Shown in pieces: positions 25,742-26,662 of a stretch of 64,000 nucleotides of DNA (the first letter of the stretch is position 1; each line of letters opens with the position of its first letter). The stretch lies in assembly GCF_044324785.1 (NCBI RefSeq), contig NZ_CP172127.1. One strand, given 5' to 3'. Below the pieces are notes generated by a model, which saw nothing but the letters and a program-made list of their open reading frames with translations, made no database searches and was not told the origin of the DNA. Position numbers and translations under genes: made by a program. Origin of the DNA: Escherichia coli. GTDB taxonomy: Bacteria; Pseudomonadota; Gammaproteobacteria; Enterobacterales; Enterobacteriaceae.

Positions 25742-26662
25742 TTAACGAGATTCATTCAGAGAGTGAATGCCGTTACGTAATATTTCTATTCGATGTTGTA
25801 CATCATCCTTCGCATTTATTTCGAGCAGCTTGATGCCAGCAAAATGCAATGTTGACGGTTCTGCTACATTAAATAACTCGCGAACATGATCTGTGGTCAT
25901 CAGGCTTTCTGCGCAGAATGGTGCAAACGGCGCGTGTAAATCCTGCCATTCTCCGTATGCTCCGTTTAGCGTCGTACCAGAGAACATCAACGCGCCGAGT
26001 TTTCCGGCTTGTTTCGCCATTTGGGTGTGGGTCAGCGGCAGCGTTGTATTGCGCCCTTCAATGGCAGAGCGCGCCCAGTTGATACAGATGCTGATGTCAT
26101 AATCGGTAATAACTTCCAGCACATTTTCTAAAGGCAAAAAGCCTTTTCGGGGGGAAGAAGATGTCATGGCGTCGCAGTGTTCCAGCACCAGCTTGCACGG
26201 CCAGTCCCAACTGGCGATTTCTTTCAATGAGCGGGCAAAAGCATCCGTCGCCTGCATAACATTAGGATTCGTTGCTAACGGTGCAGCCTGGAGCTCCAGT
26301 GCGAGCACTTTATTAGCCTGCAATGCGTTGATTTTATTGAACAGGTGGCGATAGTACGCCACGCAGGCTTGGCGCTGTTCTTCATCACTGGAGGCGAGAC
26401 CAAACCCGCTGTTTTCGTTGCGGCGACGCATGGTTTCCATCACTGCGGTGACGACAAATTTCCAGCTCTCTGGCGTATGACGGAGTAACCATTGATCGCC
26501 AAGAGGGTGGAAGTTTTCCAGGCAGGGTTGTTCCAGACCCAAAATGTCTGGAGTCTCAGATAATTGTCGCCAGAAATCCTTCTCTTCCTCTTCACTTCTT
26601 TGATGAAAAGAAGGTGCACAGGGATACGCGCCGATAATATAACCGGCATTATTCGTTTTCAT
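25742..26662 (-). CDS. uncharacterised 306-aa protein, possibly a TIM-barrel sugar-phosphate isomerase/epimerase-like enzyme
   Basis: Intact ORF in the operon orientation, 23 nt after yiaL and 114 nt before yiaM. No motif I can name with confidence; alternating beta/alpha-like segments ([36 protein letters not shown]) suggest a TIM-barrel. Confidence 0.55.

Follow-up and report, generated by a model that had tools for sequence, protein, structure and literature searches.

The closest described counterpart of the locus considered here is the yiaKLX1X2PQRS operon of Klebsiella pneumoniae, which was reportedly described by Campos et al. in J Bacteriol (190:6615) in 2008, the year from which the name yiaX1 is said to date. 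An article that describes this operon (PMC4324149) calls yiaX2 a secondary transporter and refers to yiaX1 as "a chemotaxis-like protein". The yiaK promoter is controlled by PlaR and L-ascorbate (PMC6958661). In a Salmonella sprout transcriptome, yiaK and yiaL are given as induced genes, and the neighboring gene is not listed. We analyzed a 64,000-nt stretch of Escherichia coli DNA (RefSeq assembly GCF_044324785.1, contig NZ_CP172127.1; "the window"), in which an additional open reading frame (ORF) lies between yiaL and yiaM of the yiaK-sgbE operon. The additional ORF proves to be orthologous to Klebsiella yiaX1, an ancestral member of the 2,3-diketo-L-gulonate operon.

A conserved DUF4862 gene in the yiaK operon

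A sequence-only reading of the window had pointed to an intact ORF of 306 amino acids (aa) at 25742-26662, co-oriented with yiaL and yiaM and separated from them by gaps of 23 and 114 nt. The ORF listing agrees with it on each of these points: all three genes are on the minus strand, and the gaps were measured at 26663-26685 and 25628-25741. The gene and its immediate surroundings are as follows, with the source of each entry in brackets (CDS, coding sequence; dN/dS, ratio of nonsynonymous to synonymous substitution rates).

25742..26662, minus strand: yiaX1 orthologue, an intact 306-aa CDS of the DUF4862 family with an ATG start (ORF listing, Pfam, dN/dS, AlphaFold2)
26669..26672, minus strand: Shine-Dalgarno sequence GGAG, 6 nt before the ATG at 26662 (sequence inspection)
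26663..26685, minus strand: yiaL-yiaX1 spacer of 23 nt, without a terminator-like site (ORF listing, consensus scan, sequence)
25628..25741, minus strand: yiaX1-yiaM spacer of 114 nt, AT-rich (ORF listing, consensus scan)

The sequence-only reading could not assign a family, and the Pfam scan supplies one, since the protein matches DUF4862 (PF16154) over its full length (E 4.5e-94, score 315.6, residues 9-294 against positions 1-291 of the 291-position model). It carries all 12 family-invariant residues, and in this respect does not differ from the family. No NCBIfam model matches the 306-aa protein. The dN/dS values of the window gene against six orthologues (E. whittamii, E. albertii, Salmonella, Citrobacter koseri, Klebsiella, and Pseudocitrobacter; Nei-Gojobori method) are between 0.06 and 0.10, indicating strong purifying selection, and the value against the closest species, E. 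whittamii, is 0.10. Its GC content (49%) is close to that of the neighboring genes, and its codon usage resembles theirs when read in frame, both shifted frames scoring negative. The DUF4862 match, the low dN/dS, the codon usage and the presence of a RefSeq CDS elsewhere in E. coli together show that 25742..26662 is not a chance ORF, and it is a real, conserved gene. An equal-length gene in K-12, or a lack of conservation and codon bias, would have spoken against the sequence-only reading; we looked for both and found neither.

The orthology to yiaX1 follows from sequence and position together. Klebsiella proteins are 74% identical to the window protein over 99% coverage, and the locus of the 74% protein (P0052) reads yiaJ / yiaK (Ldh_2)-yiaL (DUF386)-DUF4862-major facilitator superfamily (MFS) transporter-lyxK-sgbH-sgbU-sgbE, so that the window ORF occupies the same operon slot as Klebsiella yiaX1. 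In both operons yiaX1 stands third, after yiaK and yiaL, in a gene cluster that adjoins the divergent yiaJ and continues with a transporter and lyxK-sgbHUE. The difference is in the transporter, as yiaX1 is followed by the MFS protein YiaX2 in Klebsiella, whereas it is followed by the tripartite ATP-independent periplasmic (TRAP) transporter YiaMNO in the window. In Salmonella the order is yiaK-yiaL-DUF4862-yiaMNO-lyxK-sgbHUE, identical to that of the window, and the window gene layout is therefore the ancestral one.

When one genome was scanned per species, 409 species proved to have a relative, and in the best 80 loci the neighbors were placed by tblastn. YiaK and YiaL lie directly upstream of the DUF4862 gene in 73 of these 80 loci, and LyxK and SgbH lie downstream in 70. 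In 65 of them transport falls to the MFS protein YiaX2, and in only six to the TRAP system YiaMNO, these being from Escherichia, Pseudocitrobacter vendiensis, Affinibrenneria, and Succinivibrio, to which Salmonella can be added. From this synteny, yiaX1 belongs to the canonical enterobacterial operon, and K-12 is the exception. Beyond this group, DUF4862 is spread over Gammaproteobacteria and many Actinomycetota.

As a genome feature, the gene is already known, through the Pfam family, the RefSeq annotation and the Klebsiella name yiaX1. In the library searched, no paper mentioning DUF4862 turned up, and no functional data were found in the literature on yiaX1/yiaX2 and yiaL/yiaK. Its neighbors in AFDB50, the AlphaFold database clustered set, are only uncharacterized DUF4862 proteins.

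The remaining genes of the operon in the window are as follows.

27162..28160, minus strand: yiaK (3-dehydro-L-gulonate 2-dehydrogenase / 2,3-diketo-L-gulonate reductase), first gene of the operon (RefSeq orthologous loci, tblastn)
26686..27150, minus strand: yiaL (DUF386 / YhcH-YjgK-YiaL family), directly upstream of yiaX1 (NCBIfam TIGR00022, E 3.8e-62)
25160..25627, minus strand: yiaM, TRAP transporter small permease, directly downstream of yiaX1 (NCBIfam NF007374, E 2.9e-89, above the curated cutoff)
23880-25157, minus strand: yiaN, TRAP large permease (ORF listing, orthologous loci)
22881-23867, minus strand: yiaO, TRAP binding protein (ORF listing, orthologous loci)
21381-22877, minus strand: lyxK, downstream catabolic gene of the operon
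20722-21384, minus strand: sgbH, downstream catabolic gene of the operon
19869-20729, minus strand: sgbU, downstream catabolic gene of the operon
19180-19875, minus strand: sgbE, downstream catabolic gene of the operon
28362..29210, plus strand: yiaJ/plaR, divergent IclR-type repressor of the operon (ORF listing, RefSeq, PMC6958661)

The family of YiaL takes in the sialic-acid anomerase NanQ, as indicated by its NCBIfam match. The longest yiaK ORF (27162-28199, minus strand; 345 aa) starts 39 nt upstream of the RefSeq orthologue start (332 aa, 999 nt), and the mechanically called yiaN ORF (23880..25355, GTG start) begins well before the annotated start (425 aa) and overlaps with yiaM; both longer ORFs are artefacts of ORF calling and are not features of the operon.

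Judging from the common strand, the 23-nt gap, the ribosome binding site and the lack of a terminator-like site, yiaX1 is most likely co-transcribed with yiaK-yiaL and with yiaMNO-lyxK-sgbHUE. The consensus scan found no minus-strand terminator-like site in either of the two gaps around yiaX1. The single promoter-like match in the 114-nt yiaX1-yiaM spacer is weak (25699-25670, 9/12) and is not above chance, since the scanned region holds seven promoter-like sites against 5.3 +/- 2.7 expected.

Two haplotypes within Escherichia

The K-12 MG1655 genome has a spacer of only 117 bp between yiaL and yiaM. The 1,063 bp of the window from 25639 to 26701, comprising yiaX1, its spacers and the last yiaL codons, correspond in K-12 to about 125 unrelated bases. 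The sequence-only reading had suggested, with reservation, that K-12 may carry pseudogene remnants at this spot. Such a remnant was sought and rejected: the best local alignment of the 117-bp spacer against the ORF region scores 21, compared with a mean of 18.4 and a maximum of 28 for shuffled sequences, and because this similarity does not exceed the shuffled controls, we conclude that there is no yiaX1 pseudogene remnant in K-12.

The difference between the two genomes extends beyond the gene itself, over the following segment.

23400..26760, no strand: tract deeply divergent between the window and K-12 haplotypes (blastn breakpoints, sliding identity, per-gene identities)

Sliding windows place its edges at ~23,400-23,850, inside yiaO, and at ~26,760, at the yiaL 3' end. 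For sgbE, sgbU, sgbH, lyxK, yiaK, yiaJ, and avtA, the window and K-12 are 96-98.5% identical, and for the genes touched by the tract the DNA identity is 92.4% (yiaO), 78.0% (yiaN), 72.5% (yiaM), and 91.3% (yiaL). The window yiaM has 91.9% identity to its counterpart in E. whittamii and 85.9% to that in E. albertii, the values for yiaN being 95.2 and 87.0%, and the K-12 yiaM and yiaN are only 72-78% identical to the alleles of the window, E. whittamii, E. albertii, Salmonella, and Pseudocitrobacter. E. fergusonii and some E. albertii have a K-12-type YiaM (96% identity), and the K-12 type stands at an equal distance (72-81%) from all other enterobacterial alleles that were compared. No donor of the K-12 yiaM allele was identified, the nearest proteins from outside Escherichia being 76-81% identical. 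Two deeply divergent yiaM/yiaN haplotypes segregate within Escherichia, the K-12-type haplotype alongside the ancestral one. The simplest reading of these identities is that the K-12 type reflects an old replacement of yiaL'-yiaX1-yiaM-yiaN-'yiaO by a divergent allele without yiaX1, and it is by that tract replacement that yiaX1 would have been lost from the K-12-type haplotype, which about four fifths of E. coli carry. The operon was defined in K-12, whose version is a derived mosaic without a gene that is retained under strong purifying selection by nearly all other Enterobacterales.

Within E. coli, the 921-bp yiaX1 ORF is present in 1,055 of 5,426 complete genomes, with one chromosomal copy each, and the CDS at the same position is named "DUF4862 family protein" in RefSeq. 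The presence or absence of the gene follows clinically interesting lineages, as O25b:H4-ST131 (ST, sequence type), avian pathogenic E. coli (APEC) O1 and uropathogenic (UPEC) strains are among the carriers. Nearly all genomes of a spread sample (59/60) match yiaX1 over an uninterrupted 921 bp, and the intact 921-nt CDS was found in all four sampled carriers (ST131, APEC O1, ST80, and a wildebeest isolate). Strain N3, which among complete genomes is nearest to the window (99.0% identity over 14.1 kb), has a frameshifted yiaX1 pseudogene of 920 bp vs. 921 bp (N3 locus 6742-7562). In E. coli JMF1, an IS1 insertion was observed in yiaN beside an intact DUF4862 gene (JMF1 locus 1-817). The N3 frameshift and the JMF1 insertion point to a decaying operon in some carriers.

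Fold, conserved residues and proposed role

We aligned 132 DUF4862 sequences that are 29-90% identical to the window protein. Twelve positions are invariant in this alignment (E44, G88, E161, H162, D164, K173, N195, W196, R198, D241, H243, and K278), and several of them form the motifs E161-H162-x-D164, N195-W196-x-R198, and D241-x-H243. The AlphaFold2 model built on the same alignment has a mean pLDDT (predicted local distance difference test) of 96.6 and a pTM (predicted template modeling score) of 0.93, with eight beta-alpha repeats, and most of the invariant residues lie at or just past the C-terminal strand ends, the usual active-site face of a TIM barrel. All structural neighbors of the model are sugar-active enzymes or endonuclease IV, and the (beta/alpha)8 fold is nearest to members of the xylose-isomerase-like TIM barrel superfamily, which includes xylose isomerase, D-tagatose/allulose 3-epimerase, UlaE/SgbU, YcjR, IolE/IolI, YgbM/OtnI, and endonuclease IV, to which YiaX1 is only 9-17% identical. 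The sequence-only reading had suggested a TIM-barrel isomerase or epimerase; the barrel is borne out by the eight beta-alpha repeats of the model, and the isomerase/epimerase part remains a matter of analogy. Neither the protein alone nor the 132-sequence profile found anything in sequence searches of the Protein Data Bank (PDB) beyond spurious bacterioferritin matches (E 0.17). Comparison with the SgbU profile was similarly uninformative, as the global hhalign alignment was nonsense and the local one had an E of 0.014 and a probability of 3%, the SgbU alignment being shallow (Neff 1.8), and the SgbU hidden Markov model had no match with an E below 0.1 among 249 DUF4862 proteins.

The enzymes of the xylose-isomerase-like superfamily chiefly transfer protons at positions beside a carbonyl group, passing through enediol(ate) intermediates, and the intermediates of the yiaK operon are 2,3-diketo- and 3-keto-acids. 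From these two points together, an isomerase-, epimerase- or tautomerase-type step suggests itself, and it is by analogy with the superfamily that we infer the enzymatic nature, the substrate and the reaction type of YiaX1. As the best explanation of the observations as a whole, we consider it probable that YiaX1 performs an auxiliary step of the 2,3-diketo-L-gulonate operon as a soluble xylose-isomerase-like barrel enzyme. YiaX1 is encoded by the third gene of the YiaJ/PlaR-controlled yiaK operon for 2,3-diketo-L-gulonate, the breakdown product of oxidized L-ascorbate, and would most likely be a soluble (beta/alpha)8 barrel with its active site at the C-terminal strand ends. It may isomerize, epimerize or tautomerize a keto-sugar acid, the likely substrate being a form or isomer of 2,3-diketo-L-gulonate or 3-keto-L-gulonate. 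Working beside YiaL, it might feed YiaK and LyxK, in a step that would be helpful rather than essential. OtnI, reported by Zhang et al. (PNAS, 2016) as a 2-oxo-tetronate isomerase of the YgbM family in threonate/erythronate pathways, has no sequence relationship to YiaX1 and is an analogy only. The role proposed for YiaX1 would be relevant to the use of oxidized vitamin C by gut and plant-associated enterobacteria, and the assignment of YiaX1 to a barrel with a possibly non-canonical active site is a testable enzymological lead.

Distant DUF4862 homologues (31-41% identity) are also found in carbohydrate clusters. In a Microbacterium locus, two IclR regulators, a split transketolase and a PfkB kinase lie directly upstream of the gene. 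A second locus combines a sugar ABC transporter and IclR regulators with a short-chain dehydrogenase/reductase (SDR) gene that overlaps the DUF4862 start, a dehydratase of the mandelate racemase/muconate-lactonizing enzyme (MR/MLE) type, a dihydrodipicolinate synthase (DHDPS)-type aldolase and a PfkB kinase, and in a third the gene adjoins an IclR regulator near PfkB/RbsD. The Microbulbifer neighborhood and short metagenomic contigs were uninformative on function. In the metagenome-assembled genome GCA_028282505.1 (7001-8023), a 36%-identical homologue sits in a cluster for nonulosonic-acid / nucleotide-sugar biosynthesis, together with genes for NeuB, UDP-N-acetylglucosamine (UDP-GlcNAc) 2-epimerase, a CMP-transferase, a GFO/IDH/MocA protein, SDRs, a radical SAM protein and a protein like 3-dehydroquinate (DHQ) synthase, and DUF4862 is therefore not confined to catabolic operons.

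Several points weigh against the proposed role of YiaX1 as an auxiliary barrel enzyme co-transcribed with the operon. The Pfam model AP_endonuc_2 (PF01261) does not match YiaX1 significantly (E 0.26) and reaches E<=1e-3 in only 4 of the 132 relatives (best 3.3e-6), and for this reason we claim superfamily membership at the level of the fold only, not of the Pfam family. The metal ligands of SgbU are presumably E153, D183, H209, and E255, by analogy with UlaE. When these are mapped onto YiaX1 by strand positions only, a single canonical ligand seems to be kept, the first (E161), with N195, F227/S228, and K278 in the places of the Asp, His, and Glu. Additional invariant His, Asp, and Lys residues further set YiaX1 apart from the superfamily. 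The core pathway is reportedly complete without YiaX1 (Yew and Gerlt in 2002 and Campos in 2007), so that no missing step calls for it. The AT-rich 114-nt yiaX1-yiaM spacer could also house an internal promoter.

Since only E161 of the ligands seems to be kept, the chemistry of YiaX1 may differ from that of the classical isomerases and epimerases, and two alternatives take this up. YiaX1 could have the same fold with another chemistry, as a dehydratase, a lyase/decarboxylase, a hydratase or a Schiff-base (lysine) enzyme, acting on a spontaneous rearrangement product of dehydroascorbate/2,3-diketogulonate or on a species imported by YiaX2 and converting it to a YiaK substrate. We regard this as possible but rather unlikely; the apparent ligand loss on which it draws comes from a mapping of strand positions only, and the lineages with the TRAP transporter (Salmonella, E. 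albertii, E. whittamii, and B2 E. coli) keep yiaX1 under strong purifying selection, so that it is not simply redundant where TRAP is present. To a similarly limited degree, it is conceivable that YiaX1 belongs to a re-tooled branch of the xylose-isomerase-like enzymes with a Glu/His/Asp/Lys set in place of the metal site, which together with YiaL would carry out an extra step in the use of oxidized ascorbate that K-12 has lost, for example the conversion of a cyclic, hydrated or rearranged form of dehydroascorbate/2,3-diketogulonate to the YiaK substrate. If that were true, the textbook pathway, as defined in K-12, would be incomplete for most Enterobacterales. A function in chemotaxis or signaling we consider extremely improbable. 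The label "chemotaxis protein, resembles CheA" is attached to the proteins P0052, P0071, and P0114 and to the AlphaFold database entry A0AAJ3NWP2, Klebsiella and E. coli proteins both bearing such names, and the wording "chemotaxis-like protein" stands in PMC4324149, but the label is contradicted by domain and fold evidence: Pfam scans of YiaX1 and its 132 relatives found no chemotaxis, Hpt, histidine-kinase/HATPase_c or CheW domain, the model is a single confident TIM barrel with sugar-active enzymes or endonuclease IV as structural neighbors, and the gene context of the yiaX1 loci is catabolic.

Two further explanations concern the history of the gene rather than its product. An acquisition by horizontal transfer, as a strain-specific insertion into a K-12-like operon, might be suspected because the indel has sharp boundaries and because K-12 and some 80% of the complete E. 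coli genomes lack yiaX1. However, yiaX1 stands at the corresponding place in Salmonella, Klebsiella, Citrobacter, Enterobacter, E. albertii, E. whittamii, and others, it agrees with its neighbors in GC content and codon usage, no mobile-element features lie beside it, and the window alleles of yiaM and yiaN are the Escherichia-like ones, with the K-12 alleles being the outliers; such an insertion is thus highly improbable. It is also quite unlikely, if a little less so, that yiaX1 in E. coli is a decaying relic without current function, as might be thought from its loss from most E. coli and its frameshift in N3, because it is intact in the window, in the four sampled lineages and in 59 of the 60 spread-sampled genomes, and dN/dS is 0.10 even against E. 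whittamii.

Other features of the window

Past sgbE, the window carries a sugar-utilization island of three genes (14726-19148) that is deleted in K-12.

14726..16744, minus strand: glycoside hydrolase family 127 (GH127) ORF, resembling the NCBIfam "aceric acid hydrolase" model (E 6.5e-136, below the curated cutoff)
16707..18107, minus strand: symporter ORF of the glycoside-pentoside-hexuronide (GPH)/YagG type, part of the island
18333..19148, plus strand: AraC-type regulator ORF, part of the island

The K-12 pseudogene ysaD matches only the 3' end of the GH127 ORF (window 15022-14834, 90%), and ysaC matches only the 3' end of the AraC-type ORF (window 19148-19047, 97%), which indicates a separate deletion of ~4 kb in K-12 past sgbE. 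It is probably ysaC and ysaD that lie behind the pseudogene remnants suggested in the sequence-only reading. E. coli N3 shares the GH127-symporter-AraC trio, and in Salmonella, too, sgbE is followed by a GH127 gene.

Between yiaY and aldB, a 431-aa ORF (7811-9106, plus strand) lies in a 1.4-kb segment (7734-9101) without a counterpart in K-12 or N3, and no NCBIfam model matches it. Two short stretches of the window, 29834-29935 and 63738-63857 (~100-120 bp), match each other's K-12 counterparts at 82-87% identity. These counterparts are intergenic, near ysaA/avtA and near mtlA-mtlD, and the two stretches appear to be copies of a short repeat element of intergenic DNA.
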